This document shows positions 1 to 25,131 of a stretch of DNA of 61,795 nt, one piece after another (the first letter of the stretch is position 1; every line of letters begins with the position of its first letter). The notes beneath the pieces were generated by a model. That model was not told the DNA's origin. It saw only the letters and a list, made by a program, of their open reading frames with translations, and did no database searches. This DNA comes from an uncultured bacterium. Its GTDB lineage: Bacteria > Bacteroidota > Bacteroidia > Bacteroidales > CAIWKO01. The translations under genes and the position numbers were made by a program. The stretch covers positions 1-61,795 of the forward strand of contig CAIOYH010000124.1 in NCBI GenBank assembly GCA_903862465.1, given 5' to 3'.

Positions 1-750
1 ATCAAATAAAGTAGGCTTATTGCCAAGGTCAGTATAGCTGCCACTAGTGGCTACGGTTGCCAAAGTAGGTTTGTTTAATAAAACACCTGTACCAGTTGCA
101 GCATTCCAATCTGTTTGAACTTGGGCAGCAGGTATGGTAGGCTGGTTGCTAAGGTCGGTATAACTACCACTTGTTGCTACGGTAGCAAAAGTTGGTTTCG
201 ACGTTATTTCTAACCATGTAGGCACGTAAGTGATAGGACGATACAATCCGGCATGATTTCCCCAACCATACGCCGTATTCCAGTTAGTGATATTTGGTGA
301 TGTTATTCCGTAAGATGGACTGTCAGTCCAAAGCGGGTCAGTTTCTGTGTAACTTGTAAGATACCCTGCTGAGGCATGATTGCCCCACCCATAAGCAGTG
401 TTCCAATAAGCAATATTGCTGCTTGTAATGCCGTAAGCTGATGAAGCCGTAAAAACCGGATCGCTTTCCGCACCGCCATATATTTTAACCCATAGTGCAC
501 CATTATAATAATAGTATCCCGCGGGCGCTCCTGTTTGATACACCAAAAGTCCGGTAGCCGGCTCGGTTACGTTGGCTGTTAACGTAACGCGCGGAGGTAG
601 GAAGCCTTTGGTTGAAGATTTAACATCCAACATAGCGCTGCCATCGGGCGAAGAACCATCGTTGTTGATACCCACACTTTGGGCAAAGCTTGGCATACTT
701 CCTACGGTAAAAAATGCCAAAAGTAAAAGGAAAGTAATTTGTTTTTTCAT
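1..750 (-). CDS. Secreted tail-fibre-like repeat protein, 5' part only (runs off left edge; absent from ORF track)
   Basis: ATG at 750 (minus). Read manually as MKKQITFLLLLAFFTVGSMPSFAQSVGINNDGSSPDGSAMLDVKSSTKGFLPPRV..., then two ETDP..WNTAYGWGNHA repeats and two ATVATSGSYTDL.N.PT repeats. No stop before position 1. Signal peptide ends at SFA-Q. Confidence 0.85.
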   Translation of the reverse strand, partial: MKKQITFLLLLAFFTVGSMPSFAQSVGINNDGSSPDGSAMLDVKSSTKGFLPPRVTLTANVTEPATGLLVYQTGAPAGYYYYNGALWVKIYGGAESDPVFTASSAYGITSSNIAYWNTAYGWGNHASAGYLTSYTETDPLWTDSPSYGITSPNITNWNTAYGWGNHAGLYRPITYVPTWLEITSKPTFATVATSGSYTDLSNQPTIPAAQVQTDWNAATGTGVLLNKPTLATVATSGSYTDLGNKPTLFD

Positions 751-824: not shown

Positions 825-904
825 AAGCCCCAATGAAAGATGCCTGTATGGGTCAGGTTTGTTTTTTTAGGTGGTTATGCTCGTCCACGTCGATGTATTT
901 AAAA

Positions 905-953: not shown

Positions 954-960
954 TGGAGCC

Positions 961-1692
961 CTACCCAATGGTATGGGTATGAGGTCCGCTCCAGGGTCCT
1001 GCCAAATTTCTGTGGCTTGCCAAGGTCCAGCGAATCCAGAATTTGAAATCGAATCCGGCAAACTTCGGGTCAACGTTAACCAAAAATTTAGCAGTAGTTA
1101 ATAATTCTTTATTGTTAGTATCTGCCCAACTGTCGCACACTTTCAACACTTTCTTGTCGGTAGTTTCGTCAACTTTGCGTTTGCCTTCAATCACGGCATA
1201 CATAATTTCGACCATATCAGCTGTTTCGGGAATCGCATAATGTTTTTTATCGAATCGCGAACGGGTGCTGATAGAAAACTGTCCATTGGTGAGCGAAACG
1301 GTGTCGGGAATACAAACTTCAACTATCGGAGCTGTAGGAGTTTCTTTTGGTTTTACTAATCCTGTTTTGCGGTTTAAGGTTTCGCGGTCCGATGAGGTCC
1401 ATTTGCTGGCGGGTATGTCGTTATAAATTTCGCTCAACGCTTTCCGCATCTCTTTTGATTTTTGGCGTAAGCCGGCTTTCACCAATCTAGTGCGGCTTCC
1501 GGTGGCGTCGTCCCATAGGGTTTTAAAATACAGGTAGGTGTCGGGGATGTCCACATCGCCATATATGGCGGCTAATGCGGTTAGTTTTGCAGATGCAATG
1601 CCCAAACGAGTGGCATTGGCAGTTAAATAAGCCATTACGGCTACCAAATAGAGGAAAAATCCTAAAATTGTGGTTGGATATACGCTTCTCAT
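961..1692 (-). CDS. 243-aa hypothetical protein (helical N-terminal part, beta-rich C-terminal part ending in RW...GPWS); paralog of 23667..24398
   Basis: ATG-initiated ORF that aligns without gaps to 23667..24398 (roughly 60% identity by eye; shared YNDIPASKWT, LNRKTG, TRSRFDKKHYA, DETTDKKVLK). Confidence 0.9.
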   Translation of the reverse strand: MRSVYPTTILGFFLYLVAVMAYLTANATRLGIASAKLTALAAIYGDVDIPDTYLYFKTLWDDATGSRTRLVKAGLRQKSKEMRKALSEIYNDIPASKWTSSDRETLNRKTGLVKPKETPTAPIVEVCIPDTVSLTNGQFSISTRSRFDKKHYAIPETADMVEIMYAVIEGKRKVDETTDKKVLKVCDSWADTNNKELLTTAKFLVNVDPKFAGFDFKFWIRWTLASHRNLAGPWSGPHTHTIG

Positions 1693-1783
1693 ACTATTTA
1701 ATTTTTTTATGATTGTTTTTAATTTTGTTGATATTTATATGGATAAATGAAAATGGTTTTTAGCGATTATTTCTCTGATTACT

Positions 1784-2488
1784 TCATGAAAAACCTGTAT
1801 AGAATATGGGTTGACCCGATTTGTTGTAAAAATCATAGAGTTTGCTATAGAATTGAATAAAAATTTTACAGTTTTGTTTGTAATCAATAAACATACACAC
1901 ACATTTTGCGTAAATGTGCTTGCCTGTAAATGACTTGTACAAGCGTTTAATTGCGTTGTGCATATAATTTAAAATGCTGTGTATATAATTAAAAGTGTAG
2001 TGCGTATGTGCACAAATGCTGTGTGTATGTGCGCAAGTGCTGTGCGTATGTACACAAGTGCTGTGCGTATGTGCACAAGTGCTGTGTGTATGTACACAAG
2101 TGCTGTGCGTATGTACACAAGTGCTGTACGTATGTACACAAGTGTTGTACGTATGTACACAAGTGCTGTGCGTATGTACACAAGTGCTGTACGTATGTAC
2201 ACAAGTGTTGTACACGTGATTTAAAGTGTGTAAATCATGATTTATAATACGTAAATCATGATTTAAAAACCGGAAACTAAGTTTACATGGCTTGTCCTTG
2301 AGTTTTATTTGTAGATAATCAGATAGATAGGAAAAGAAGGCACAGATACTTTGTTTTAAACCATTCCACATTATTGAAAATCCAAATTGACCAGAGATAA
2401 ACTTGGTAAAAAAAGAGTTTATGCCACAGACTAAAGTCTGCATCATTGCAGTCGTATTTTTATGTATATATAGATTCCCCAAAATCAT
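1784..2488 (-). CDS. Possible heptad-repeat (HTHSTCV) protein; paralogous frame to 24490..25131; start uncertain
   Basis: Shares FSYLSDYLQIK and the C-terminus (KSGQPIFYTGFS* vs KSGKPFSYSGFT*) in the same frame as 24490..25131. Could instead be a non-coding element. Confidence 0.4.
   Translation of the reverse strand: MILGNLYIHKNTTAMMQTLVCGINSFFTKFISGQFGFSIMWNGLKQSICAFFSYLSDYLQIKLKDKPCKLSFRFLNHDLRIINHDLHTLNHVYNTCVHTYSTCVHTHSTCVHTYNTCVHTYSTCVHTHSTCVHTHSTCAHTHSTCVHTHSTCAHTHSICAHTHYTFNYIHSILNYMHNAIKRLYKSFTGKHIYAKCVCMFIDYKQNCKIFIQFYSKLYDFYNKSGQPIFYTGFS
1994..2268. repeat. 21-bp tandem array (unit ~GTACACAAGTGCTGTGCGTAT), ~10 well-conserved units plus 2-3 AAATCATGATTT-type units
   Basis: Directly visible 21-nt period; all six frames are open across it. 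Confidence 0.95.
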
Positions 2489-2580
2489 GTCTTCTTATTT
2501 TTTTTCGACCTATTCAATTAGTATAATTTCTTATGTAGCATGTTTATTTTTTATTTTAAGCTGATTACAATTTTAAAATG

Positions 2581-2642
2581 CAAAATTATATCAGTCACTA
2601 AAACAATCTGTCCTGAATTATATAATTTGCTAATTCAGGACA
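2581..2642 (-). promoter_or_regulatory. Bacteroidota -7 element (TAATTTTG, 2581..2588) with upstream inverted repeat TGTCCTGAATTA..TAATTCAGGACA (2609..2642); putative AraC operator
   Basis: Motif and 12-bp perfect arms are visible. An analogous arrangement exists at 25299..25380. Function is inferred. Confidence 0.45.
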
Positions 2643-3123
2643 AAATAATTTTCGTCGGCAGCCTGTAGATTTGCCTTATAAGATATTTTTGTCAATTATA
2701 ACTCACTCACGTGTAGGTTTTAGCTGATAGATAGTGTAGTAAATATCTGACAAGAAAAAAATGAAAATATTTTTTCTAAATGATGAAGAAAGGAAGGATA
2801 ATTCCGAAAAAAAGTGTCTAGTTTGAAACTAAAAATGAAGCGTTTTAGACTTTTTATGCTGAAAATCTATAGAGTTTTTCCTGAATTCAAGTTCCGAATG
2901 ATGCCATTATGAGAAGCAATGGTAAGATCTTTTTTTGTTTTTTTAGAACCGTAAAGTATGCGGTCTAATTCTTTTTTACACCATCATCATCCCACAGAAG
3001 TGGTGCAAAGTTCACAATAACTCATAGCTTTTTGATGATGATAGCTTGTGATTTTAATTTCAGCTATCCGCCTGCAACTTAAAGAGATTCTCAGAATCTT
3101 CTCCCTAGAGTCGCGTGAGGCTA

Positions 3124-4995
3124 TTATGCTTCATCATTGGATTTGTTCGTGGATTCCAGATTAGTTTTTCGAAAATCAACAGGATTCATTCCGGTGTATT
3201 TTTTAAAAGAGACATAAAATGCTGAGCGGGAATTAAAACCGCAATTTTCCATAATTTCATCAACGCTTAATGTTTTGTAATTAGCTTCAGTGAGCATGCG
3301 ACAGGATTCCTTAATCCGAAGTTGGTTGATATATTGATTAAAATTGCTCCTATGCTGCTCACGAATCAAAGCCGACACGTAGGTATGATTGGTGCGGAGC
3401 AAGCTTGCCAAATCGTCCAAACTAAAATTTTTCCTTAGATACGGTTTTTCATCCTGCATAATTTTCCCCAAATCGAAAATTAATTGTTGACGCACCTCTT
3501 CTGCTATAATTTTCTTTTCTGCTTGTCCCGCGTCTTTCATAAGCGACTGCCGAATTTTGTGTGTCACACCCTTATAGGCATCACGCAATTTTTGAAAACG
3601 CTTATACAAAAGAAATAAAGCTAAAAGAATGACCAACGAAATGATAGACACGAACCAAATTATTTGGTTTTTATGCTGTATGACATCGTTTTGAACTGCT
3701 TTTTTTTCGTTCAAATCCTGTATCGCTTGTTCGGATGCCACAGAGGAAATAAGTATTTGACTTTCGATAAAATCTAGGGAGGCTTTTTGTTTGATAATGC
3801 TATCGCGCAATAGCTGACCGAGCAAAGCATATTTGGTTTCGAGCAATGCGACATGCCTTTTCCCAAAAACAGAAGTAAGCGTATCGCAGAACGTTTTATA
3901 TACATACATGTCGTTTAATTTCGAAACCAATTGTATGGCTGTGTCGGCATTACGGGTACTTTCCTGCAAATCGCCGTTTCTATAATATAGGGCTAAGTTC
4001 AAAAACACATTGGCTTGCAACTCCTTAGTACCCGAAGCTTTAGCATACAGAGATGCGCGCGCAAAATGATAATCAGCACTGTCATTTTGTTGGAGAAGAT
4101 TAAAATATAAACCTAAATTTGTATGCGCTTTCGATTTGAATTCGTTCCATTGAAAATAATAAGTGCATTTTTTACTTGCTGCAGTCCTAAAGTTGTTTTT
4201 ATAGTAATTATTCAACACTTCTATACTTCGGTTGGCAAGGGCTTTTACGTAACGCGTGTCGCGGCAAATCACCAATACTCTCGCTATATAATTATAGCTT
4301 AGCGCTTTTCTTGGATCTGATGGATCGACAATATGCTGATTTGCATATAAAAAACACTGCAAAGCTTTGTGGTAGTAACCTTGATTTTGATACGCTAAGC
4401 CAATATTGTTAAGAGCCAAAGCCTGCGCATGAACACTTGGATTCTGTTTGCCTACTTCAAATGCGATTTGATAGAATTTGATGGCTTGCTTGAATAAATG
4501 AAAATGATAAAACACATTGCCGATGTCCACAAAAAAATAGGGATTGGAAGCATAAGGTTCGGGATTGGCAATAAAAATTTCTACAGCCTTCAAAAGACTC
4601 TTTAGCGCTTTGAGATTATCGGGTTTGTAATTTTGATAAAACTCCACAATTTCCCTATAGGTGTCTAATTTCTTCTGTGTAGCCTTCATCGAATCCTGAA
4701 AACGTATAGAGTAGAGGAGGGTTATTTCGCAAGAATCATGATTTAGAATTGAATAACGCTTAGCTACCAAAGCAATAGAATCAATACGTCGTGCTATAGC
4801 TGGATTGATTGGTTGGTCATTAGTACTATTAATTTCACCAGACTTTTTGCAAGATAAATAATACATCCATAGCAAGGGGCTTAATAATACGATAATCAAA
4901 AACAGCCTGCGAAGTTGTATTAACTTCCTTTGGCTTTCCTTCTCTAGGATGTCAACTGTAGAGTCAACTTCGTCGTTCAAAATATCGGTACTCAT
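3124..4995 (-). CDS. Membrane-anchored TPR-containing AraC-family transcriptional regulator
   Basis: N-terminal TM, TPR motifs (ALALNNIGLAYQNQGYYHKALQCF), second TM (IIWFVSIISLVILLALFLLY), C-terminal AraC HTH (GFNSRSAFYVSFKKYTGMNP). Confidence 0.9.
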   Translation of the reverse strand: MSTDILNDEVDSTVDILEKESQRKLIQLRRLFLIIVLLSPLLWMYYLSCKKSGEINSTNDQPINPAIARRIDSIALVAKRYSILNHDSCEITLLYSIRFQDSMKATQKKLDTYREIVEFYQNYKPDNLKALKSLLKAVEIFIANPEPYASNPYFFVDIGNVFYHFHLFKQAIKFYQIAFEVGKQNPSVHAQALALNNIGLAYQNQGYYHKALQCFLYANQHIVDPSDPRKALSYNYIARVLVICRDTRYVKALANRSIEVLNNYYKNNFRTAASKKCTYYFQWNEFKSKAHTNLGLYFNLLQQNDSADYHFARASLYAKASGTKELQANVFLNLALYYRNGDLQESTRNADTAIQLVSKLNDMYVYKTFCDTLTSVFGKRHVALLETKYALLGQLLRDSIIKQKASLDFIESQILISSVASEQAIQDLNEKKAVQNDVIQHKNQIIWFVSIISLVILLALFLLYKRFQKLRDAYKGVTHKIRQSLMKDAGQAEKKIIAEEVRQQLIFDLGKIMQDEKPYLRKNFSLDDLASLLRTNHTYVSALIREQHRSNFNQYINQLRIKESCRMLTEANYKTLSVDEIMENCGFNSRSAFYVSFKKYTGMNPVDFRKTNLESTNKSNDEA

Positions 4996-6317: not shown

Positions 6318-9300
6318 TTATTCCCAACTCACCTTCACATTCTTAGTAGCAAGTGAAGTCTTCACTTTAACCAAATAGATAGCTGAAGATAAATTCAAGG
6401 TCGCGCTAAACACATTGCTACTGTTTGGAGTGGCTTTGAAAACACAAGCACCCGTGAGTGTAAACACTTCCACTTCTTGAATTTCTTCACCTGTCTGAGC
6501 GATGATGTTCAGCTTTTGACTCGTTTCAAACACATTGAAATTGGATGCAGTCAATGGAGCATTGCTGTTGTTGAATCGGATGAAGAATCTTCCGTTAACT
6601 TCGTCTGCTAGGAATTCAAAACTATAGGATGAATTCTCCGACAAATTAGTTATTTTACCTTTCAAACGGTCTTCAAGATACACAGGAAGGCTGCTCTCTA
6701 AATCGAAGGCGGTAATCTTAGCTTTGTCGCCGGCGTTACCCATTATCGTAAGCGGAATAATAGTGTTGATATCATTGATGGTGTTGATAACTAGTTTTTC
6801 ACCGGAAGCTGCTAATGAAAACATGCCAACGGGCAATCCATCGAACATTTTTTCTGAATCGTAGTCCTCGTAGGTAAGCTTTGCATCAGGGTTTTTACAA
6901 ATCACCATTTCGTCCATACCCATTTCGGTTTCTGTTTTTAGGCGCACAAGGATTTCTGTATTGTTGGATTCTTTATAGAAAGTACTAGTGCTATGTGTGC
7001 GAGCAGAAAGAGGTAGTGTGATTTTAGGGTTCGTGTAAATTGCTCGAACAAAGAATCCCTGTAGAGGAGCAATGTATGGTTTTGTGCTAGCAGGAACACC
7101 AACTCCATTAGCCGAATTATAGACTGAGAAATAGGATGTGTTAGTTACGGGAGGTCCAATAACAGCAGGGTTCCAATAATACAAGCTTGTGGATAAATTT
7201 GTTTTGCCTAGAGCATTCCAATACAAATAGGATGGGAAAGGATTTGCTAACAGGTTCCAACTTTGAGTTGCGGCGGTGCCATTATAAGTCAAAGGAATAG
7301 AGTAATCGCAAGGAGCAGCTAAACCATTGAAGAGATTACCGCTTAAAGATGCCGTTACAGTAGTACTTGGACAAACGGCATATCCAACCGTAGGTTGTAA
7401 GAAATACAATGGTGAAGTTACATTTGCCAACCAATTGGTTCCATTGGTGTAAGGTTTTAATTGCACTGTGCCAACCCCAGTATTAATGTTAGAAAGTGTG
7501 GCTCCCATACTTTGTTGGAATGGAGAACCAAACAGATGCCATGCATTGCTAAGTACTCTCTTTGCCGTTGCAGGTAAATTCGTGGTGTTTTGAATAAACG
7601 AAGCTCCTGATGCAATAACTATACCGGAAACTCCTGCATTGTTAACAATAGAACCTAACACGGAAACTTTACTTCCGCTTGCCAACGTTAGCGTATGACC
7701 AGCGTTTATGACAATATTATTCATGCTGCCGCTTATAGAGATTCCATACGTGTGATTACTATTATTAAACGTTATAGTATTATCAATGTTTAGCGGTACT
7801 GTTGTTAGCGTGATAATTTGATTGTCAATAGATGGATCAAAGTTGATAGTTCCATTATTACAGACATGATTAATGGCATATCTTAATGAACCAATGCCAT
7901 TGTTAAGTGTGTTGGTTACAGTATATGTTGGATTGCAAACAAAGATTTCAAGTGTGCCATTGTTATAAGTGATAGCATAATTGCTTGAGGTCTGTCCGCT
8001 TGGCGTGATTGTATAAAAACCAAGACTTGTTGCTGTTATGGCAGTGCCACTAAATGTCAACGAGCCTCCCAATGAAGTATAGGTATCCCCAAGAACGAAA
8101 CCACTATAGCTTACAGTATATCCTGTATAAACTGTGCCATCATAATTCTTAAATTTATCGTCAGCCGTTATGCTTAAAGGCTTAGGATTAACGATCAAAC
8201 AAAATACATTTGAATATACAGAGACACAACCATCATTTTTCACTACGGCTCTGTAAGACCAAGAACCTGCAGCAGTAGGATATTCAGAATACGTAGCACT
8301 AGTATTTGCAATAGTTGTCCAATTGCCGGAATTTAGCTTTTTCTCCCAATTTAAGATAGAACCAACATAAGAACTAAGCGTTAATGTTCCAGTTGAACCA
8401 CCATAGGTAATAGGACTTGATCCGGAGATACTTCCACCAATTGAAGCCGAACTTACGGTAAATGCCCCTGAAATTGCACTTGTTACATCCGAACCACAAC
8501 TACTGTGAACAACACAATAATAATACAATGTGCCGACAGTTGCTGTTGATGGTATATAAGAATTGGTTTGCGCACCATTAGCCGAACCTAATGAAGTTCC
8601 TCCATTATTGCTAGCAACGGTATTTTTATACCATTGATACGTTATTGTACCTGTTCCGCTTGCCATAACAATTATAGGGGTAAAGGATCCATTAAAACAT
8701 TGTGCTTGTGATGCTGTGGACTGACTATTGATTGTCGTAGCAGGATTCACAGTAAATGCTCCTGATATCTGACTAGTTACGTCATTTCCACAATCTCCAT
8801 GCACCACACAATAATAATACAATGTGCCGACAGTAGTAGCCGATGGAGTGTAACTATTGGAATTTGCCCCAACAACATTGCCACCAGATGTAATTTGATC
8901 AGCTTTGCTGAACCAATGATATACTAAATTAGTTCCTGTAGCTGCGATGCTTATCGCTGTAAATGATTCGCCAAAACACTTTGTTTGAGTTGTGGTGGAT
9001 TGGCTTGTAATACTCGGATTAATACACGATGGTATAATTACGGTTATAGCTAACCTGCTGCTTTCACATCCATTTATTGTCTGGCTAGCATAGTAAGTAG
9101 TTCCATCTATTAAAACATCCGAGGATAAAAGAAGATCGCCACCAGTCGAAGCATTATACCACTTGATATCCGTGCCAGTAACTGATATATCAGATATCTT
9201 TGAAGTGGGAATCAATGTTTGAGGAGTCGTTCCACTTGGAGGTGAAGGTATAGGATTCACCGTAAGGTTTATCGTGTTGGAAGTCTCTTGGATTCCTGAA

Positions 9301-12300
9301 ACACAAGCTGCGTTTGAAGTCATTATACAATACACACTTTCGGATGCCCCATTGTATTGAAAAGAAGCCGAATGTTCCGATTGCGGGACACCGCCAACAT
9401 ACCAATTATACATAGGAGCCAAACCTCCATTCGTTGGAGTTGCAGTAAAAGTAATATTGTCATTCTGGCATACTGAAGTGAATGGGGTTGAGATGCTTAC
9501 TCCAACAACAAGTGCGGCAGGTGCTGTAATGATTACATTCCCTGAGGAAGTTAATCCATCAACATCTGTAACAGTAACAGAGTAGCTTCCTGCAACTGCT
9601 GCAATTGAATTGACATTATATCCATTACTCCATAAATATGAATAAGGTGCTTGACCTCCCGAAGACACAGTTACTGTGGCAACTCCATCAGCAGAACTAT
9701 GGCATAAAGCAGGAGTTGTGGTAAAAGCCAAATTTAAGTTTGCTCCAATATCCAGACTGAATTCGTTATCTGTTATATTGTATTCCATAGGATTTCCGTC
9801 ACTGATTCGTCCAATTAAAGTAGTTCTTGTATCAACAACGGTCCAAGGGATTGAAATGGGAATACTTTCGTCAACATCAAGCGAGATGAATTGCTGTCCA
9901 ACCAATACTTCATTGCCTTGGTTATCTAAATAATATACTCTATAGGTGGCATCACAAATTTCATAACCAATATTTTGGATAGTAGCATCAATAGATATTT
10001 GAGCACCATCAGGGGGAAGGCTATTGCTTACGCTATGAGCAATAAAAACTAAATTGGGTGCTTTGCCTACTATTACTGCACGAGTTGCTTCGTTATTCAG
10101 TTCGTCATTTTCCGAAATTTGGTTATCGTGATCAATAAAAGTTCTAATGATATGAATACCACGGATATTTGAAGACCAAGGAGTAACTAAATGAATCGTA
10201 TTGAATGTTCCTTGCATTAATCCCGGAACAATTTGTTCCTCTAATGGAGTATTGTCCACCTGAGTAAATAGTTTGATATCTTGAGTGCTCGACATACCAA
10301 TATTCTCATACGTAATATCAATATCAATTGGCACATTCAAATCAGGATTCAATAAAGAAGGCGCAATATACTGCGACAAAACCCTATACTCCGGCTTGTC
10401 GCTAACCAAAACTTCAACAATAAGTTCATTATTAAAATCATCACATTCGATATAGGCATTATGAGGATCTGCTATCATCTTCACCTGATAGGTGCCGTTA
10501 CTTTGAAATGCATATTGCGGAGCGCCTTCTAATCTAAATGGACAGCTACAGACCGTGGTGCCGCAAAAGGTTTGTGCTGTAGCATCCGGCAAAGCTCCCC
10601 ATGCAGGGTAGATACCTCCCACCTTAGGACCTCTTACATAAAAATGAACATCTAAATTTGAGGCTTTATATATACCTAAATTATTTACACCAACATCTAA
10701 TGTAACAGGTGTGTTTTTTATTTGAGTATAATTCCAAAAGGCTCCATTTCCGCAAAGATCCGTTAAATAGAAATCCCAACACAACGAAGCTGTTGCAACA
10801 TTGTTGAATTCGTTTGATTCATCAATGTCACCTTGAGGATCGACTGGATCAATAGTAACAGTTAAAACTTTATTACCAAAAGCAGGAGTAGGAACTGTAA
10901 TTTGAATTTGTCGAGATTGACCGATTAATAAGCCAAGCTGATTGGAAATAGTAGGATTTCCATCCACCATGAATTCTACATCAAATGGTCCTGAATCTTC
11001 TAAACCAATGTTCGCTACTGTTGCAGAAATAATAATATCTCCTGCTGGAGGACCACCCACAATAGGATCAACAGGATTAACTATTAAATTAGAGCAACCA
11101 TAAACTGTTAAGTCTGGTTTACATGCAATCAATGTCGTGGTAACGGTTACAGCATTGTTTAATTCGCTAATCTCAGCAACCACTCCCCCAAGTGGTAATG
11201 GAGGTAAACAATCAGCATGAAATTCAAAAGAATAATTTCCAGGATCATGATGTTGGTTCCAAGGGAAAGTTACGGAAGTGCACGTAAGTGCAGGTATATT
11301 ATTAACCAAGACATTTGGCAAGTGTATAACTGCCCCACCAAGAGGAGTAATATCTAAACTACAAGCGAAATTACCTCCAACAGGACCAGTAGCAACCCCA
11401 CCTTGATTATCAAGCCAAAATGTGATACTGTTGAATTGACATTCATAATATGGACTTCCAAGATTTCCGGAAGCTATAATATCAGGTAGAGTGGGATGAA
11501 CCATTATGCACACGGAGTTGTTATTATTTCCTTCGGAACATTCATCTATTTCACTATCAAAATCCACTGTTGTAGAAAAGTACGTTCCACCTAAATTAAT
11601 AAAGGTCATGGCAGGTATGATTATATTAAACGAAGCCCCAGGTGCCAAAGCGGGAATAGGATAATTACCGCTAGGATTTGGATTACCATCGGGAGATTGT
11701 ATATGCAATTCAGATGCCAAACTAGCTCCAAGACCTTGATTCGTTACGGTTACTGAGCCTGCTAATGCTTGCCCTTGCAGAATATTTATGCAATTGTTCC
11801 CATGGCAATTTCCGGGAGTAACCGTTTGAGTTCCTAAATCTATAGTAGCAACTAAATCCGGTAGCAAGCAAGGAGGTGGTGCAATAATTTCAAAAGAAGT
11901 AGAAACATCCCCATCCAACGTAAAATCTGTAATATGCACATTCACATGATAAATTCCAACTGGAAAGGGTGCATAAATACCGAAACAATAATTACCTAAG
12001 GAATTGGAATAGGTACTTCCTGTTTGTCCGGTTTCTACAACAGTGTAAGTTACCGTTGCTCCAGCGCAAGAAGGATCCAACAGCACAACAGAAGTACCTA
12101 CATACCACGCACTGCCGCATACATTAATCGTAGAGTTAGAATATGCAACAGGAGGTGTAGCAGTAGCTGTGATTTCTATATGTCCTGGTAAAACAAAATT
12201 CCCATTAATAAACGGACGAATCGCTTGATTGTCCAATTCATTAGGCTCTACTAAAGCATTGTTACAGTCAATTATTACCTGCATCGGACACCACGCCGGT

Positions 12301-15300
12301 TGGTCTGGAGTTTGAATGTCCCAGGAAACTGTTGTTGAACTATACGCCGCTATTTGAGCAATAGGTTTAGGATCCGGAAGAATAACAACATCTGGAGCAA
12401 ATTGATTTACCAGGCGAACTTCAAAATTATTTGCAGGGCTTCCTGAATAGTTATGAATAACGGCACTAACTGTGATATGGTCACCGGGGTTAGGATGCGA
12501 GTTGGAGAACGTTATATCATTTGCAAAGATGGAAACATCAGCTGCTGTAAGCACGTCAGGTTCTGCTTCCGGTCCTAATACCACCGAGAAGTTACCATCA
12601 TCAACTGCTGTTATGGAAGTTTTCCACTGGTTCGACTCAGGAAGAGAGGAAGCTATATAGTAATAATCTTTCCCATTTGAGACATCTACATCTAGCGGAT
12701 CTATCTCCATCATAAAATATAATCTATCGTTCGCATCTGAAGTTGCTGGATTTCCATCAAAATCTAGTTTAAGTCGGGGATAGGTTGCTGCCGGTAAATC
12801 ACCATCTGCGTCTGTATATCGAACTTCAAAACGATACTCATCATTAGGAGTGCCATTTGCTGGACTTACTACATGATTCACAAATCCAATATTATTGGTA
12901 TAGTTTAAGGTTGGAGGATGATTGAGTGGCGGGTCAATTGCTTTTTCGGGCGAACAGTCTGAGGTATTACAGCTACCTTCTGCTCGTACATAATAAGTTG
13001 TGTTTGTTACCGGATTAACATTAATGGAAGTTCCTACATCCACAAATACCCCTATTTCTCCACACGCACCGAAATACCATTTATAGGAAGCTCCTGTGCC
13101 AAGAGATCCACCGACAACGGTAAGAGTTGTAGGAACACCTATCCACACAGATGCTGTTCCGCTGATAGATATAGGAGCTATAGACAATGTATTTACTGTT
13201 ACTGTTGCGCTAGCACAAGAAGAAGTATTACACGTTCCTTCTGCACGAACATAATACGTGGTATTAACTGCGGGATTAACATCAATTGTTGCTCCTGTTT
13301 CTACAAATGTGCCACCACAGCTTCCTGAATACCAATGCCAAGAAGCATCCGTTCCAAGTGAGCCTCCTACAATTGAAAGTGTTGTATGTTCGCCTGCACA
13401 AATTGTAGTGGTGCCGCCAAACGAGGTTGGAGCAACAGATATCTCGTTTACTGTAATGTCAACATTTGCGCATGCTGTGGTGTTACAAGCATTTTCTGCT
13501 CTTATGTAATATGTTCTGGAACTTGATGGACTCAGCGTAGCAGATGGTCCAATAGCTACTAGTGCGCCTCCACAATTGGTTTCATACCAATGCCAAGAAG
13601 CCCCTGCTCCGAGGCTGCCATCAGCAACCGAGAGCATAGTGGAAGTTCCGTTACATATAACAGCCGTTCCGTTAATACTGGTTGGAACAGTGGAGGGAGT
13701 GTGTATTGTAGCAGTTACATCTAATAGATTGCTACTTTCGCAACCATCCACAGTTTGACTTGCATAATAATGTGTGCCACTGACCAAAGCACTGCTTCCT
13801 ACTAATAGATTTCCTGCACTTGAAGCATCATACCATTTTACATCGGTGCCGATTGCTGCTAAACTTGCAACAGTAGGCGATGCTGTTGAACAGAACGATT
13901 GAGCTGCCGTTCCCGTTGGAGCGGCTGTTGTGTTTACAGTGGCTGTTACCCCTAATCTGTCTGAACTTTCGCAACTATATAGAGTCTGGCTTGCATAATA
14001 CCGAGTGCCATGCACTAAAACTGTAGAAGTGGCTAATGCACTTCCTCCGCTTTCATAAGCATACCATTGAATTGTGGTTCCCGTTGCTGCTAAATTAGCG
14101 ACGGTAGCACCTGAACAAAATGTTTGTGCTGCAATTCCTGTTGGAGCATCCGGTGTTATATTAACCGTAGCAGCCACTGTTAACCTTGTTGAACTTTCGC
14201 AACCGGCTACAGTTTGCGTTGCATAATAATTGCTTCCGGAATATAATGGAAATGTGCCCGAACATGTTGATTGACCGAATGGAGTAGAATACCATTTGAT
14301 ATTACTACCTGATACCACTAAATCTGCTACCTTAGGAGAATTCCCTGAGCAGAAAGATTGAGGTGATGAACCTGTTGGAGCATCAGGAGTGGAATTAACT
14401 ACAAACGCTCCCGAAATCAAACTCGTTTGTGGACTGCCGCAATCGCCTGTAACGACACAATAATAATATAAGGTGCCTATATCAATTGCTTGTGGTGTAT
14501 AACTATTTGTTTGTGCTCCATTTTCATAATCAAGTGATGTTCCTCCGCTATTGCTTTCAATGGTATTACTATACCATTGATACGACAAATTCGTTCCGGT
14601 GGCAATTACGCTAATTGCAGAACAAGTTTCTCCAACGCAGTATGAATGTGATGCGGTTGATTGGTTGGTTATTGAAGTTACAGGATTCACAATAAATGCC
14701 CCCGAAACCTCGCTGACAACTGTTCCACAGGAACCTGTAACACCACAATAATAATATAAGGTACCTTCTGTGGTGGCTTCCGGAGTATAACTTTCTGTTT
14801 GTGCTCCGTTATCTGAACCCAAAGAGATTCCTCCGCTATTACTTGCCACAGTATTTTTATACCATTGATACGTTAAGGTGCCGGTTCCGCTTGCTGTAAC
14901 ACTTATAGGTGTAAAGGTTCCATTGATGCATTGCGTTTGCGTGGCTGTTGATTGGCTACTTATGTATATTGTACATTGTTTTAAAACCGATACTGTGCTA
15001 CTGAATCTATCAGCTACCGTCAAATCTGGTTTTCCATCCCCATCTATATCTCCAATACAAACTGAATAAGGATAAGTGCCTGTAGTAAAATCCGCTTTGC
15101 TTGCAAAACTAACTGAACCTGAAGTGGAGGTGTTTCGTAATATAGAAACAGTGTTACTACCAGAATTAGGGACAGCCAAATCTGGTTTTCCATCCCCATC
15201 TATATCTCCTATACAAACTGTATAAGGAGTAGAGCCTGTTGTAAAATCTACTTTACTCGCAAAACTGACTGAACCAGAAGATGATGTGTTACGTAATACA

Positions 15301-18300
15301 GATAGCGTATTGCTGGAAATGTTTGGCACAGCCAAATCTGGTTTGCCATCCCCATCTATATCTCCAATTCTTAACGTTCCGGGTCCAATACCAGTTGTGA
15401 AATCAACTTTTGCAGATAAACTAATTGCACCTAAGGTGGAAGTGTTGCGAAATACCGATACCGTATTGCTGCTATAATTATTAACCGCCAAATCTGGTTT
15501 GCCATCTCCATCTATATCACCGATACTTGCTGAAAACGGAACGGAGCCTGTCGTGAAATCTATTTTAGTTGCAAAACTAATTGTTCCTAGAGAGGAAGTA
15601 TTACATAAAACAGATACAGTGTTACTTCCGGTATTAGCTACAACCAAATCGGGTTTACCGTCACCATTTAGGTCACCAATATTTATTGTTTCAGGCAAGC
15701 TGCCAGTTGTAAAATCTACATTAGTTGCAAAACTAATACTTCCAGGAGTGGATGTATTGAGATAAACAGATACTTTGCTACTATTATTAATAGCAACCGC
15801 CAAATCGGGTTTGCCATCGCCATCTAAATCTCCAATACTTACAGAAGAAGGACCTGAACCCGTTGTAAAATTTACGTTGTAGGCAAAACTAAGATTCCCT
15901 GAAATGGACATGTTGCGAAATACCCATATCATATTGTTACCATAATTAGCTACCACCAAATCAGATTTTCCATCACCATCTATATCTCCAATACTCACTG
16001 AAGGATCATAGCCTCCTGTAGAAAATTGTTCTTTTGCAAAAGCAATATTTCCTGCTAAAGTAACAATAAATGGGCTTGCCGAATATGCCGTTAAATTCAA
16101 TGCCAAATTGGTAACAGAGATATATTGATAGGTAACTCCCACAGGTACCGTTACTGTTAAACTAGTAGAGGTAGCTTCCGTCACCATGGCTTGAGTTGCG
16201 CCAAAGAACACAATGTTTTGTGCGACTGTAGTATTAAAATTAGTACCCGTAATGGTAACACTACTCCCAATAGCACCACTAGCGGGGGTGAAGTAGGTGA
16301 TGGTAGGGGGTGGAGGATTTACAAAAAATGCACCTGAAATAGCACTTGTAACATCAGCACCACAATCACTATGAACAACGCAGTAGTAATATAGCGTACC
16401 GATGGTTGTAGCTAGAGGCGTGTAGGTGTTTGAATTTGTTCCTATAACAATTCCTCCCGAGGTATTTGCAGATGTATTGCTGAACCATTGATAACTTAAC
16501 GTCCCCGAGCCGTTAGCAGCTATGCTTATAGATGTAAATGTACCATTGATGTATTGTGTTTGGGTGGCTGTGGATTGACTAGTAATAGTTGTGGCTGGAT
16601 TCACAACAAATGCACCTGATACAGTACTTGTTGCTGTTCCGCAAGAGCCCGTTACCATACAATAATAAAATAATGTTCCGGCAACAGTCGTTGATGGGGT
16701 GTAGGTATTGGAGTTTGCTCCAACAGCAGTTCCGCCTGAAGTACTTGCCACAGTATTTTTATACCATTGATACGTTAAAGTGCCGATTCCGCTTGCTGTA
16801 ACACTTATAGGCGTAAAGGTTCCATGAATGCATTGTGTTTGTCCTTCTGTTGATTGGCTACCGATACTAGTAACAGCATTAACGGCTACACTCACAGTAT
16901 TGCTTGATGCACATCCGGTACTAGTAGCGGTAGAGGTTACTGTATAAGTTGTATTTGCCACCGGTAAGGCATATACCGTAGTAGTAGAACTGCCAATATA
17001 AGGTAAAGTAGCACCAACATTAGTGAATAAACCTGTTTGTGGTGACCATGTGGTTTGAGCAGGACCAATTCCAGTAATACTTACATTATCAATACCCCAA
17101 AAAAACCTCCAAACTCCATCATATTTAAAGCGAATATATACAATAGATTGATTTAGAAATGGAGCTGTTAAAGCAATATTTGCATTAACGAAATCACTTA
17201 CTGCACCTTGAGTAGAGTTGTAGGTTTGCAAAGAAGTCCATGTTGTACCACTTAATGAAACTTCAACCTTTCCGGTAGAGGAAGCTGTTGTAGGTTCGTA
17301 AAAATAATGCCAAAAACTTATATTCACCTGCGTGAACCCAACTGTGCTAATTGATGGAGATTGTAGTATGGTTGCAGTAGTACCGCCAGTACCTTGTACA
17401 TCACTATTTGACATGTAAAATTTTGAATTATCATTACTATGCCAAGTTCCATAAGTAGTATAAACATAAGCATCCGGTTCTAATGTCCATGCTGCTAATG
17501 CGGGAGTTCCATTTGTTGAATTATTAAGTTTTGTCCAATTATTAGTTCCACCATTAAAGGTTTCACTTAATATTGTTACTCCACTAATTGTTCCTCCGCT
17601 TGCCGTTAATAATTGAGTATTACCACCCGGACAAACTGTTGCACTTGAAGGAGTAACAGTAATTGCCGAAGGCGTTTGATTAACAACAACACTAATAGAA
17701 CTTACTAAAGAAACACATCCATCTAAGATAGCCGAAATTGAATAGGTGCCACTTGCAGCAATTGTTGCAGCAGGAATCGTTGGGCTTAGACTTGATGATG
17801 TAAATCCGTCAGGTCCTGTCCAACTAAATGTACTGCCAATATCATTTGTACCTATAAGATTTAATGTCGAACCCGCACATATCGGCGAATTGCTTGAAGC
17901 ACTTATTGTCGGGACAGGCTTTACCGTTAGTGCCGCTGCATCACTCGTCACAGGCAATCCACAATCAGCACTCATTACTACGGAGTAATCACCCGCATCT
18001 AATGCTGTTACATTATTTAATGTCAGAGATGCTGTGGCAGCACTTGGATTTGCTATCGGGTCAATAGGAATAGTATTTTTCTGCCAAGTATAAATCAAAT
18101 TTGGTCCACTTGCGGCAACAATAAATGTTGCAGTTTGTCCCAGACATTTTATAGCAGGAGCAGGTTGTGTTATAATGCTTGCTTCCAAAACAGCGGCAAC
18201 TGTTGTGCTAGCTGTAGCCACACATCCATAATCGTTTTGTGCTGTAACGGTGTACTCGGTATTTACAATTTGAGACACATTGGTGGGATTTTGCTCGGAT

Positions 18301-21300
18301 GAAGTAAATCCGGTAGGGCTTGATGTCCATGAAAAGGAACATGGATTCAATTCACCTCCTGTTATGGAAATATCATCAACAACTAATGTATGCATGTTAG
18401 CAGCAGAGTAACAATTCCAAGCAAAATAATACATACTGGTCGTCATAGGTGTGAAAGTGGGATTAGCTTGTAACCAAGAAGTATTTACAATCCCAGCACC
18501 TGTCCATAATATTGTTGTTTGAGCTGCAACCGTGGGTGCATTTCCAACTGTAACTTTAAGGTTTTCCGGATAAGAAGTTCCGAAAGGAAGAACATACCAA
18601 AAAGAAATAGTATATGTAATGCCTGCGTTTAAGTTAAAGCCTTGTGTTATTCCCCAGCAATTTGCAGCATTATTCAAATTAAACGTCAAACTCATTGATT
18701 TTGTACCACTATGGTAATTTGATGTGTTGGAAGCCCACTGATTACCCAAGCCTGCATTTATAAAAGTCCAGTTTGCTGGGGGCCACGTTTCAAAACCTTC
18801 AGAATAATTAACCAAAGATCCAGCGTTCGATGATGAATTCAAGTTAAAAGACCCTCCAACACATACTGTTGGCATACTTGCAGTGGCTGTTACATTTGTT
18901 GGTATTGGATTAACAACAACGCTCACTGTAGCCGTTGATGCACATCCACCATAAGGACCTCCGGTATAATCATTTGCAGATACGGTATAAACTGTGGTTG
19001 CAATTGGTGAGGCAGTAACAACAGCACCCGAAGAAGGTGTAGTTGTCGGTGACCATGTGTACGTATAATCCGGGTTGCTACTTGTTGCTGTTAATGTTGA
19101 AGATGTCCCTTGGCAAATTGTAGTAGGGTTGGCGGTTGCACTTAAAGTAGGTGCTGTATTTACGGTTGCTGTAACGGCACTACGCGGATTGGAACAAACG
19201 CTTTGACCTGCAAATATCATATTTGGTCTTGCAGTAGATATTGTTGCAGAAGTAGAAAGTGGACACTGTGCACTATTATCAGCCACTAAGTATGCAACAC
19301 TATTAAAAGCAGTTGTTGTTCTATTCATGACAGCATTAGCAGTATAAAAAATACCTGAGCTTGTTGCATCATTTGTAAAGCAAACTTCCACAATAATATT
19401 TGAACTACCATCCCAATAAAAAGGATTAGAAAAAGTATGCGTATTTAAACCGGCAATAGGCTGATAATTTACCGGACCAAATACTGTGGTAAATCCGGTA
19501 GTTTGTAAAGTTGCCGTAAGTATATTTAATGGAGTATTTGCTATGCTAATTGTAAATGCTTTATGTACACCTGAAGTTCCAAGACTAGCCACATCAAATT
19601 TTAAAGAAGATAAATTGCCAGCACTTAAACCAGCAGCCGATAATTCCGAACCCAAAATCAAAATATGATGTTTGCCATTTTCATCCCAATTACCATAAGG
19701 GGCAGGATAGGTTTGGGTGGTATTTTGATTTGTTGTGCTTGTTCCAATAGTGGCATTCACTTGAACACCTGTTTCTGCTGCTACATAATAGGTTGTTGTT
19801 GCATTTATTATTGGTGTGGTCCAAGGTGAGCCTGAGACGGGCAAAGGAACACCACCTGTTGCAGCAGTGTACCAATTTAACGTTCCACCTGATCCTATGG
19901 CACTAAGAGATACGGTACCTATTCCGCATCGTGAGCCTGGAGTGGTTGAAGTAATGTTATTGTTAAAGGTTATATGAATTGGGGTTGAAGTGGCGGATGT
20001 AGGTCCATTCAAACATGTAACAATACATTGATAATAAAGTGGTGCATCGGGCACTACCGTATAAATGGATGATGTTGCATCAGATATATTGCTATATGCT
20101 ATCCCATCTGTTGACGATTGCCATTGATATGAAACTCCTAATCCAGTTGTAGCATTTTGCAATGAAAGAGTAATACTTTGTCCATTGCATAGTGGATTAG
20201 CTGTTGATAGCGTGTTGCCCGGTGTTGGCGTGGCGGAACACGGCGGTTGTGGTTGCATCACCAATTGAATATTTGGACGATTATATGTTCTACTTGTTGC
20301 AGTTGGCGGTGATGCAGGATTGGGATTGGTAGTGTTGTTATAATGATATAAAGTGCGGTAATTAGCTGATGTTGAAGTATATCTCCATGATGCAGCAGTC
20401 CCGACACCTGCCACGTTCTCATCTATAGCAACCACCAAGTTTGTCCCATCCCATATATAGGGTGTGGTTAATGTTATGGTCATCCATCCGGCAGCACCCG
20501 GTAAAGCGACGGCTCCATCGTAGCACGATGTTAATGAAGCTAAAGGAACCCAACTGGTGGTTGATGCAAAAGTTGCCGTTGCAGTGTTGCATAAATAAAC
20601 AACCCAAGAGTTAGTATTCGTTAAATTACCTGATCCAGCCCAATAAAACCTAATAGTTGTTATTTGCATACCTGCTACTCCTCCACCTGCAGAAATTTCT
20701 GATGCGGTATAAATTTGCTGCGTATAATTATAAGCGTACGCGCTATAAACCGGATTGTTCGCGGTTGTGGTTGTTGCAGTGCCGATGGTAACTGTAGGAT
20801 TAGCACTAAAAGTTGTAAAAGTTCCTTGTGTGGTATATACCGTACCACCACTATTAGTAGAAAAAGCCTTAAAATAATAAACTGTGGATGTTGTTAAACC
20901 GGTAACAGGTATAGTAAAACTTCCTGTTGAATAAGGACCCGGAGTTACAGATACTTTTGTTCCGGCTCCATCGGCAAATCCGTTTGTAGTGCTCCAATAG
21001 ATACCTCTTTCCGTAACCGGTGAGCACCCGGTGGCTGTAATATTACCTCCTAAAGTTGCTGTGGTCATTCCTATGCCTTGACTTGTGGGTGTAGTGATTG
21101 TTAGTGCAGGATTGATACCGGCTCCGGTAACGGAACGATTTACAGAAGCTGCTCCACCTCCACCAACGACAATATTACCACTATAGGATTGTACAGCAGT
21201 TGGCGAAAACTTTACATATACTATTTGTGAGAATGCACCGCCTGTTTGGGGTATAGTCAAACTAGAAGAATAGGTTGTGTTATCGATAGAATATGTAAAA

Positions 21301-23666: not shown

Positions 23667-24398
23667 CTACGCTATGGTTAGCGTAAACGGTCCGTTCCAA
23701 TCGCCAGCCAAATGCTTGTGGTGGGTGTTGGTCCAACGTACAAAATACTTCACGTCGAATCCTGCCAAACTCGGGTCAATGTTCAATTTGAATTTTGCAG
23801 TTGTAGAGGAATCATGGCAGTTTGTTTCCGAAGGAATGCTGCATGATTTCAACACTTTTTTGTCGGTAGTTTCGTCAATTTTGCGTCTGCCTTCCACCAC
23901 AGCATACGCGATTTCGACCATATTAGCAGTATCCGGAACTGCATAATGTTTTTTGTCGAAGCGCGAACGAGTGCCAAAATGAAAAATACCCAATGGAAGC
24001 ACCGTAGCGTCGGGAATGCATGGGTCGCTAATTTGTTCCGTTGGTACTGTTTTAGATGCTTTTATTCCGGTTTTGCGATTTAGTTTGTCGCGGTCATTGT
24101 CGGTCCATTTGCTGGCAGGGATGTCATTATACGTTATGCTCAACTCTGCTTGCAGCTCTTTTGTTTTTTTACGTAAACCTCTTTTTACAGCTTTGGTGCG
24201 TGCGCCCGATTCGTCGTCCCAAAGTGCTTTGTAATACAAATAGGTGTCAACCGTGTCCACATCTCCATATAGGGCTCCTAAAATCAGAAGGCGAGCCGGA
24301 CTAACGCCTAATCGTGTGGCGTTTATGGTTATATAGGGCATTGCTATAATAATATAGGTGAAGAATCCTAAAATTGTTCCTGGATATACTGATGGCAT
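23667..24398 (-). CDS. 243-aa hypothetical protein; paralog of 961..1692
   Basis: Same length as 961..1692 and aligns to it without gaps. Confidence 0.9.
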   Translation of the reverse strand: MPSVYPGTILGFFTYIIIAMPYITINATRLGVSPARLLILGALYGDVDTVDTYLYYKALWDDESGARTKAVKRGLRKKTKELQAELSITYNDIPASKWTDNDRDKLNRKTGIKASKTVPTEQISDPCIPDATVLPLGIFHFGTRSRFDKKHYAVPDTANMVEIAYAVVEGRRKIDETTDKKVLKSCSIPSETNCHDSSTTAKFKLNIDPSLAGFDVKYFVRWTNTHHKHLAGDWNGPFTLTIA

Positions 24399-24489
24399 AT
24401 TATTTAAGTATTTATTGATTATTATTTATAAATTTGAAATGATTATTGAATTTTTAAAGTATAGAAAATGATTTTTTTCTTTAATTAAT

Positions 24490-25131
24490 TCATGTAAAAC
24501 CTGAATAGGAAAATGGTTTCCCTGATTTACTGACACTGCCTATACGGTTACAATTGTTGAAACTGTGGTTGCAAAAGCAATAGGTATGTTTTAAGATGAA
24601 ACGCATAAGGTTTACAGTTTTTGAACCACGGAAAAAAGTGTAGCAACCTCGGAAAAAAGTCCGGCAACCTCGGAAAAAAGTGTAGCAACCTCGGAAATAA
24701 TTCCAGCAACCTCGGAAAAAAGTCCGGCAACCTCGGAAAAAAGTCCGGCAACCATGGTTAAAAGTGCAGCAACCATGGTTAAAAGTGCAGCAACCATGGT
24801 TAAAAATCGCAAAAATCGGCTTAAAATGCGTGTGCTTGCGTTTTATTTGTAGATAATCAGATAGATACGAAAAACAAGCAGAGATGACTGCCATGGAAGT
24901 GCTCATAATCCCCCAAAATATATGATACACTACTATGATATGTCCTACGGCATTGTTTGGCATAAAATAAAACGACGAGCACGTTTGAGCGGGTGTGGAA
25001 TGAAAAGAGTTTTTTGTAATGTGCAAGCCGGCGTTCGTGCCGAATTTGGCGCAGCCTGTTGCCATTCTCCTGTTCTTTAAGGAGACTTGAGCCGCAAAAC
25101 CAAAACAAGCGATATCGAACCAAGGTTTCAT
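24490..25131 (-). CDS. Possible heptad-repeat (RTFFRGC / CTFNHGC) protein; paralogous frame to 1784..2488; start uncertain
   Basis: Shares the FSYLSDYLQIK and KSG.P..Y.GF.* anchors. N-termini are not similar. Confidence 0.4.
   Translation of the reverse strand: MKPWFDIACFGFAAQVSLKNRRMATGCAKFGTNAGLHITKNSFHSTPAQTCSSFYFMPNNAVGHIIVVYHIFWGIMSTSMAVISACFSYLSDYLQIKRKHTHFKPIFAIFNHGCCTFNHGCCTFNHGCRTFFRGCRTFFRGCWNYFRGCYTFFRGCRTFFRGCYTFFRGSKTVNLMRFILKHTYCFCNHSFNNCNRIGSVSKSGKPFSYSGFT
24622..24810. repeat. 21-bp tandem array, 9 units of two types (GCAACCTCGGAAAAAAGTCCG x6, GCAACCATGGTTAAAAGTGCA x3)
   Basis: Directly visible 21-nt period. Confidence 0.95.

Follow-up and report, generated by a model that had tools for sequence, protein, structure and literature searches.

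Positions 1 to 61,795 of contig CAIOYH010000124.1 (C124), from an uncultured Bacteroidales bacterium of lineage CAIWKO01 (assembly GCA_903862465.1, here G000), form the stretch analysed in this study, referred to as the window. Its minus strand carries two loci, W1 and W2, at which a long open reading frame (ORF) runs through a 21-bp tandem array and stops shortly before a gene for a 243-amino-acid (aa) protein. In these array ORFs and their relatives the frame is maintained and the length between a conserved 28-nt anchor and the stop codon changes in whole units; the tail that follows the array shows the mark of purifying selection in the one informative ortholog pair. Judged from sequence, the array ORFs are probably translated, and we give about even odds to the fuller reading, in which they would form a fast-evolving heptad-repeat gene whose repeat region gains or loses whole units and recombines at the anchor, paired with an envelope protein resembling fibronectin type III (FN3) domains. 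Each array would then be the in-frame repeat core of an unannotated gene that stands first in a conserved pair, the FN3-like protein being its partner, and in the window this pair would lie upstream of a very large protein of secreted type. The proposed gene would comprise a variable N-terminal module, the invariant anchor (FSYLSDYLQIK), an integral number of 21-nt (7-codon) units and a tail with the pattern KSGxPxxYxGFS directly before the stop. In a family that keeps its frame, register, 28-nt boundary and tail while the intervening sequence is replaced, it is the periodicity that persists, not the sequence.

Two array-bearing frames in one register

ORF 1 (1784..2488, minus strand) has 234 codons from its first ATG, and ORF 2 (24490..25131, minus strand) has 213; an ATGATG at 2446 may serve as an alternative start of ORF 1. 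The 28-nt anchor (GTTTTATTTGTAGATAATCAGATAGATA) is exact at 2302-2329 and 24840-24867, as a preliminary description of this DNA had reported, and an exact duplicate of this length in 62 kb excludes a chance origin. Read on the minus strand as TATCTATCTGATTATCTACAAATAAAAC, it lies in frame as YLSDYLQIK and marks the module boundary of ORF 1; the identical 28-mer lies within ORF 2. A third copy with two mismatches is found on another contig of the same genome (C43:3862-3889), and exact copies occur in two other species, G011 (L027:1927) and G010 (L028:1882; L112). A second, distal anchor covers the final 12 codons and TGA stop of each ORF, at 1783..1822 (KSGQPIFYTGFS, minus strand) and 24489..24528 (KSGKPFSYSGFT, minus strand). 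By hand count these are identical at 30/40 positions, the figure given earlier, and their differences fall mainly at third codon positions; the synonymous changes that had been pointed out there (TCG/TCA, GGT/GGG and CCC/CCA) were found, and across loci GGA and CCG occur as further variants.

Between the two anchors the loci share a frame and then part, in the manner first described. Both minus-strand translations read FSYLSDYLQIK followed by three NH-containing heptads (LNHDLRI, INHDLHT and LNHVYNT in W1; FNHGCCT twice and FNHGCRT in W2), then continue with HTHSTCV-type heptads in W1 and RTFFRGC-type heptads in W2, and end at the stop with NKSGQPIFYTGFS and SKSGKPFSYSGFT, respectively. Counted from the first base of the anchor through the first in-frame stop codon, W1 spans 546 nt (26.0 units) and W2 378 nt (18.0 units), so that the proposed difference of 8 x 21 holds and each locus contains whole units, 26 and 18 heptads. 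As detected by Tandem Repeats Finder (TRF), the main array of W1 occupies 1993..2211 (minus strand; period 21, 10.4 copies, 90% matches), with the sense unit GTGTACATACGCACAGCACTT encoding the HTHSTCV-type heptads, and its degenerate units reach over 1930-2232 (repeat family D2). A proximal sub-array at 2217..2267 (minus strand; TRF 2.4 copies) is made of TAAATCATGATTTAC units encoding LNHDLRI heptads and is homologous to the proximal units of W2 (2217-2347 versus 24755-24885, ungapped, 72%; family D19). The array of W2 (24624..24826, minus strand; TRF 24624-24795, period 21, 8.2 copies; family D4) consists of RTFFRGC-type units over 24624-24749, then of three proximal AACCATGGTT-type units (FNHGCCT) to about 24812.

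The two sites are copies of one minus-strand cassette with the order AraC-family gene, 0.26-0.64 kb without a called gene, array ORF, 91-nt spacer, 243-aa gene and huge repeat-rich gene, each array ORF stopping 91 nt ahead of its 243-aa gene.

The register extends to relatives. In G011 and G010 the orthologous loci (protein identity 85% and 81%) retain anchor, stop and 21-nt register, the distance from anchor to stop being 23 units (483 nt) in the first and 25 units (525 nt) in the second, while their units match the window unit at only about 15/21 and 14/21 positions (hand count). These data bear out the proposal that period and position are held while units turn over. Database ORFs with the conserved tail (P0019, P0020, P0022, P0024 and P0026) contain 23, 20, 23, 26 and 14 heptads; P0019 and P0020 correspond to W1 with 3 and 6 heptads removed and could be collapsed assemblies. 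In all, the anchor-to-stop length is a multiple of 7 codons in nine of ten complete ORFs (P0021, P0023 and P0057 are truncated and stand outside this set). Frame preservation in orthologs, a check that the preliminary description had called for, is thus seen in both species, the exception being the database ORF P0025. This ORF reads the distal anchor in another frame, with the tail INQENRFSSLAFHE, which fits a 1-nt deletion in the DNA or an assembly error.

The tails change in the same steps. The G011 tail differs from that of W1 by a single 63-nt block, and a Logan contig of one relative has 63 extra nt at the same place, near 1829-1835 (Logan contigs from four DNA runs over 700-3200 break at the array). 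These 63-nt blocks and the whole-unit lengths show that length changes in whole units even where the sequence looks non-repetitive. The simplest cause of the register is whole-unit slippage or unequal exchange, together with degenerate old units at the array edges and selection on the frame. No in-frame indel of 3 to 18 nt occurs across diverged tails, which hints at an added constraint on phase alongside the mutational cause. In the proposed gene, the repeat region would grow and shrink by slippage or unequal exchange and its units would be homogenised within each array, a combination under which register survives as sequence turns over.

A maintained frame upstream of the 243-amino-acid genes

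All seven G000 paralogs of the 243-aa gene have a 21-bp array upstream, different at each. We extended the comparison to 29 loci with enough upstream DNA, seven from G000, 15 from relatives and seven of 12 metagenome loci. Loci with short upstream DNA (L015, L022, L033, L034, L098, L102 and L105) were omitted, as were L035 (a 29%-identical match in a record titled Woesebacteria), L036 (a fragment), and L100 and L104, whose statistics equal those of L099 and L103. By identity M097 is G004_C40 and M103 is G003_C588, which leaves 27 distinct loci (9 genomes and 5 metagenome contigs). Every one of the 27 has a 21-bp array, and in 26 the distance from array end to gene is 83-343 nt. The sense-strand frame left open through the array extends a median of 91 codons beyond it, against 15 for the antisense; the sense extension is the longer one at 24/27 loci (Wilcoxon p=9e-5) and exceeds dinucleotide-preserving shuffles of the flanks at 19/27 loci for p<=0.05 and 13/27 for p<=0.01. 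Because the loci are kin, the combined p-value makes the case look stronger than it is. For the window, the extension is 162 codons versus 40.6 in shuffles for ORF 1 and 160 versus 43.7 for ORF 2 (p=0.003 for each).

The array ORFs of paralogs have 102-304 codons and widely different heptads (e.g., VRLVPVS, GNCGSFL and KSGFTAE), and their frames stop anywhere from 91 nt upstream of the estimated start of the downstream gene to a 5-nt overlap with it. At 11 of the 29 loci the promoter-like box TAnnTTTG precedes the first start codon by no more than 60 nt; no exact box was found at the two window loci, and a sigma-70 consensus scan of 700-3200 is uninformative for Bacteroidota. Other gene callers have predicted members of the array ORF family, none with a Pfam domain or a name.

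Selection was estimated from the proportions of non-synonymous (pN) and synonymous (pS) differences. Over the 55 tail codons that follow the array, W1 and its G011 ortholog give pS 0.48 and pN 0.096, a ratio of 0.20, with 5 differences at first, 6 at second and 16 at third codon positions (binomial p=0.005); the 243-aa gene of the same pair gives pN/pS 0.26. The final 12 codons and TGA stop are conserved in W1, W2, G011, G010, P0022, P0024 and P0026, with changes at third positions. The N-terminal part behaves differently from pair to pair: between G014_C53 and G004_C102 its pN is 0.19 while that of the neighbouring gene is 0.028 at equal pS, so that it is nearly unconstrained there, and between G005_C20 and M107 it is more conserved than the neighbouring gene. 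Among the three options that the preliminary description had left for these arrays (a Cys/His-rich heptad peptide, a repetitive RNA or DNA sites), the heptad peptide is the best supported, through the strand comparison (24/27), the shuffles (19/27) and the tail ratio (0.20); "Cys/His-rich" applies only to this subfamily. The heptads are not of the coiled-coil kind, since many hold Pro, Gly or Cys, and the AlphaFold2 (AF2) model of ORF 1 (predicted local distance difference test, pLDDT, 37.9) is uninformative on fold either way.

Conservation at the end of the ORF could also be that of a translated leader, whose C-terminal peptide would act at the stop on the 243-aa gene, through coupling or nascent-peptide arrest; the repeat peptide would then be functionless and the array a neutral passenger, tolerated because 21 is a multiple of 3. 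Such a leader would account for a frame that is kept while the repeat sequence is unconstrained, for peptide conservation that is strongest at the very end, and for the fixed stop and the 91-nt spacing found in 4/4 close loci. It fits less well with the length of the ORFs, with apparent purifying selection that spans 55 tail codons and reaches beyond the last 12, with N-terminal modules conserved within types, and with the other subfamilies, in which the tail differs and the spacing varies down to an overlap; nor was any covarying RNA structure found between stop and start. We regard a leader as possible but unlikely.

A repetitive RNA, transcribed from the array as short hairpins or phased 21-nt products, seems very improbable. 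Units with stems of at least 5 bp are modestly enriched (23% versus 10% in shuffles), and the RNA of array 1 folds better than shuffles (z = -2.75). Most units, however, have no notable stem, Rfam at gathering thresholds matches only a DUF805b motif and nothing on the arrays, RNAalifold predicts 10 pairs between distal anchor and start codon, none of them compensatory, and the frame-specific constraints would be left unexplained.

The anchor as a proposed boundary and the second copies

Upstream of the anchor even the orthologs are unalignable. By eye, N-terminal types recur in other assemblies with amino-acid substitutions and are joined there to different array types: a G010-like N-terminus is found in P0023 with W1-like units and in P0026 with W2-like ones; one and the same N-terminus occurs in P0022, where the units are G011-like, and in P0024, where they are G010-like; and P0025 starts W1-like and continues G011-like. 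The anchor would accordingly be a recombination boundary at which N-terminal modules and array types are recombined in the proposed gene.

The anchor is also unchanged at synonymous positions in five loci, which indicates constraint at the nucleotide level. This is one reason to consider a non-coding DNA element, in which the 21-bp units (two helical turns) would be phased binding sites, or a spacer, for the upstream AraC-type regulator and the frame would be incidental. AraC half-sites are spaced 21 bp apart, as in the direct-repeat operators used in phased looping, and AraC-family genes stand upstream of both cassettes. Exact multiples of 21 in all lengths would suit such an element as well, as would the orientation of TAnnTTTG-like motifs genome-wide, 254 of which point away from arrays and 164 into them. 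Yet AraC operators have two sites where these arrays have at least 10 units, the candidate binding is suggested by adjacency, and the units differ at every locus, so that no single protein would bind them all. A DNA element would further leave the third-position bias and the avoidance of stops in one frame of one strand unexplained, other loci have two-component regulators upstream in place of AraC, and even convergent gaps, which are distant from promoters, contain an array in 12.9% of cases. We consider this explanation quite improbable. The variant put forward in the preliminary description, DNA sites co-evolving with the 243-aa protein, is unlikely, as the predicted FN3-like fold of that protein (see below) does not point to DNA binding.

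Several arrays have a partial second copy elsewhere. W1 and the C43 copy share 95.2% identity along 315 nt that begin at the anchor and take in the array, between unrelated flanks. In C43 this copy sits in a convergent gap, past the terminator of a gene for an aminotransferase and opposite one for a HAD hydrolase, and it has a TAA inside its anchor. The orthologous gap in G010 contains an exact anchor and about five units, with an in-frame stop after 135 nt; these units match the expressed-type array of G010 itself at 15/21 positions and the window array at 12/21 (hand counts). Among the seven expressed-type G000 arrays, four are matched by a related array at another site, with identities of 95%, 89%, 79% and 75%. 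The C43 and G010 copies resemble silent cassettes in being promoterless, untranslatable partial copies that accompany an expressed-type locus at a distance, and the pattern of second copies is the one that exchange between expressed and silent copies would give. In the proposed scheme, such copies of anchor plus array would trade sequence with their expressed counterpart. G010 has the anchor a third time (G010:C169, L114), in a copy that shares both substitutions of C43, including the in-frame TAA, in another context and with the unit AAACATCTTTCAAGCTGCGTA. Mutagenesis like that of diversity-generating retroelements was considered and set aside, because, by eye, W1 and C43 differ by transitions that are not specific to adenine. 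The anchor is absent from the viral contig collection.

Silent-cassette gene conversion is familiar from pilE/pilS and vlsE/vls, where an expressed copy is accompanied by promoterless partial copies with a conserved boundary sequence and alleles are mosaic. The present loci resemble these systems in each respect, but here exchange is inferred from similarity, there are one or few second copies per locus and no cassette bank, and surface exposure of the product is putative. Variable-number tandem repeats (VNTRs) inside surface-protein genes, as in the size variants of Mycoplasma Vsa and Vlp, offer a second likeness: copy number changes in frame by whole units, and the repeats evolve fast between flanks that are kept. 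In contrast to those genes, no lipoprotein or secretion signal is established for the array ORFs, units are replaced between paralogs, and the period also fills the non-coding genome. The product of the proposed gene would be a repeat protein variable in length and sequence and acting at the envelope with its FN3-like neighbour, which is the weakest step of the scheme. If exchange with silent copies is real, it would constitute a diversification system in environmental Bacteroidota for which we found no earlier description.

Genome-wide arrays, their range and the neighbouring genes

The window arrays belong to a large population. In G000 (4.23 Mb, 230 contigs, 39.6% G+C; DNA matching the window region was found in lake and freshwater metagenomes), TRF detects 1179 repeat clusters, of which 325 have period 21, 90 period 42, 49 period 63 and 20 period 84; at the neighbouring periods the counts drop to 23 (period 20) and 17 (period 22), and periods 14 and 7 have 120 and 55. 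After merging, 514 arrays of period 21 or a multiple cover 86.8 kb. It is exceptional for 2% of a bacterial genome to be taken up by over 500 arrays that share a single sharp period, and since 140 of the 514 are at contig ends, such arrays may fragment short-read assemblies. For arrays of at least 105 bp (n=329), classed by location on crude gene calls after removal of spurious ORFs composed of arrays, nine lie in called genes and 320 outside: 115 near contig ends, 113 in tandem gaps (5.6% of such gaps), 47 in divergent gaps (14.5%) and 45 in convergent gaps (12.9%). Among the 274 arrays with at least four copies, 148 match the unit of another array at >=17/21 positions, in 56 families, and 126 have no similar array; some of the pairs that share a unit may be the two ends of one array split across contigs. 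No flank motif or anchor is common to all arrays, the enriched 7-mers coming from a few small families.

Several of our observations weigh against a translated gene diversified by exchange. Neither window ORF matches a Pfam or NCBIfam family, codon usage is atypical in both, and a crude codon-usage score rejected both as coding, a result of practical consequence; the family also has an odd composition and low recognition by a language model, which speaks against a folded conserved protein. Variants between array 1 units are mostly non-synonymous (H/Y, S/N and V/A; by eye), so that the repeat peptide itself shows no purifying selection, and the heptads of the paralogs have no common chemistry. 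Six other pairs give pN/pS of 0.43-0.77, on alignments that are short, saturated or protein-guided (biased), and were counted neither for nor against, W1/G011 being the one clear pair. P0025 has, with its shifted tail, 190 codons, which is 1 modulo 7, and the case for exchange between copies comes entirely from their similarity. At the scale of the genome, 45 of 236 internal long arrays have no open frame in any of the six, and only 33 exceed shuffles at p<=0.02, about 6 being expected from 308 tests. Most G000 arrays therefore lie outside maintained ORFs, coding does not explain the 21-bp period, and the window arrays belong to a special subset.

Such a population might consist of neutral or selfish minisatellites that spread in dispensable DNA, the ORFs, anchors and register being by-products of descent and unit slippage. 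The number and extent of the arrays, the almost wholly intergenic position of the long ones in every type of gap, the sharing of units by 148 of 274, the degenerate edges and the scarcity of maintained ORFs are all in keeping with this, and whole-unit indels alone would preserve register. This explanation nevertheless leaves unexplained the strand-specific open frames before 243-aa genes, the apparent purifying selection on the tail and the invariance of the anchor across three species, and an array at 7/7 paralogs contrasts with arrays in 5.6-14.5% of gaps; we judge it highly unlikely for the window loci. None of the five readings accounts for the preference of the genome for exactly 21 bp.

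It is also conceivable, though distinctly unlikely, that the arrays form a genome-wide 21-bp cassette system in part of the genus, in which hundreds of silent intergenic arrays would feed a dozen or more expressed heptad-repeat genes through anchor-guided recombination. If so, it would diversify, in sequence and in length, repeat proteins paired with FN3-like envelope proteins, and would explain both the unit sharing and the finding of long arrays only in genomes with the 243-aa family.

This family was found in 10 of the 31 genomes searched, namely G000, 8 of 17 congeners and, as one weak match, a genome of another taxonomic family. The range of the arrays was surveyed by TRF on sampled DNA (period 21, >=5 copies). 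Congeners with the family have four arrays in G005 (100 kb) and in G013 (100 kb), two in G014 (60 kb), one in G017 (43.5 kb) and none in G011 (19.8 kb). Congeners without it have none, in samples of 150.5 kb (G009), 100 kb (G016), 60 kb (G002 and G008 each), 40 kb (G006) and 10.3 kb (G007). In other genera, no array was found in G018 (100 kb) or G021 (88.9 kb) and one in G019 (100 kb), in a region picked for its weak 243-aa homolog. As the samples are small and the genomes related, the co-occurrence of arrays and family is a lead and not a test.

Among published repeats, the closest in kind is BrickBuilt, a minisatellite or miniature inverted-repeat transposable element of Porphyromonas gingivalis in which a spacer-less array of 23-nt units stands between a leader and a tail; its 19 copies are always intergenic, with one consensus unit and inverted-repeat ends (PMC4596501). 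The G000 arrays are similar in occurring in Bacteroidota, in multiple copies of tandem units of about 20 nt and at tens to hundreds of nt from genes. They differ in their 21-nt unit, in sequence that changes at almost every locus, in exceeding 500 arrays and in the placement of the studied ones within a maintained ORF. Terminal inverted repeats shared between loci were not seen: by eye, an inverted 8-mer links anchor and distal anchor in locus 1 but not in locus 2 or the orthologs. In unit and ends the G000 arrays thus fail the defining features of BrickBuilt. The heptamer direct repeats of Beggiatoaceae, Cyanobacteria and some Bacteroidetes are likewise abundant intergenic short tandem repeats of patchy taxonomy, and G000 also has 7- and 14-nt arrays; they repeat a single 7-nt word, TAACTGA, just upstream of start codons, whereas the present arrays have a 21-nt period and locus-specific sequence (PMC4679880). 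In a search of full texts, supplements aside, neither 21-bp arrays across a genome nor this ORF family turned up in any report.

The two 243-aa genes, at 961..1692 (P0003) and 23667..24398 (P0004), both on the minus strand, are 60% identical. The encoded protein has no family in Pfam or NCBIfam. Its AF2 model (pLDDT 87) shows a hydrophobic N-terminal helix, a helical domain and a C-terminal FN3-like beta sandwich, for which the best Foldseek matches in the PDB are fibronectin-III and cytokine-receptor domains. The protein atlas gave no named family for P0003 and no usable match for P0022, of the array ORF family. Upstream of cassette 1 lies a gene for an AraC-family regulator with helix-turn-helix and tetratricopeptide repeats (3124..4995, minus strand; Pfam HTH_18 8.7e-16, TPR_12 1e-9), and upstream of cassette 2 one for an AraC-family helix-turn-helix regulator (25389..26585, minus strand; HTH_18 1.6e-10). 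Downstream of cassette 2, an ORF with internal repeats (6318..23411, minus strand) encodes a 5697-aa protein with a signal peptide-like N-terminus by eye and only a sub-threshold Ig_7 match; its last 500 aa match no family. Downstream of cassette 1 is the 5' part of another large protein gene (1..750, minus strand), which continues beyond the window and has a signal peptide-like N-terminus by eye and no Pfam family. The Rfam DUF805b motif (771-803, minus strand; 35.8 bits against a gathering threshold of 35.6), a cis-regulatory RNA, sits between the 243-aa gene and this large gene, just upstream of the start of the latter, and a similar sequence occurs near 23440-23480.

Array-bearing frames also precede other genes. 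A third open frame in the window (37737-38312, minus strand, 191 codons) passes through 21-bp (RIRIYIL heptads) and 42-bp arrays, located at 37873-38058 and 38182-38492. The gene that follows 42 nt after its end encodes a protein of 164 aa, which by eye has a lipoprotein-like signal and which matches no family in Pfam or NCBIfam. Elsewhere in G000 (C166, C217, C68, C91, C89 and C129; L116-L121), such frames stop 6-123 nt before proteins of 189-234 aa, which belong to no family except that the C91 protein has a C-terminal Pfam fn3 domain (1.8e-6). These small proteins may be a second family with a helical-plus-FN3 build like that of the 243-aa protein, although hhalign of the two families gave no significant match. 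In contig C5 (L127 682-2034), an array-bearing frame stops 38 nt before a phage-integrase-family tyrosine recombinase gene.

Other repeats in the window include AATGAC(C) words every 10-11 bp at 26730-26809, 5354-5393 and 6160-6230, which form a 21-bp unit with a half-period; this unit family is present in six G000 arrays, and the G010 ortholog has a comparable run on its upstream side. Tandem repeats of heptamers and 14-mers (CCAAATA, AGTTCAG) occur at 37122-37153, 60670-60713 and 60739-60784. An example of the non-coding class is the 21-bp array of 3.8 copies at 50977-51056, in a convergent gap after a PD-(D/E)XK nuclease-family gene.

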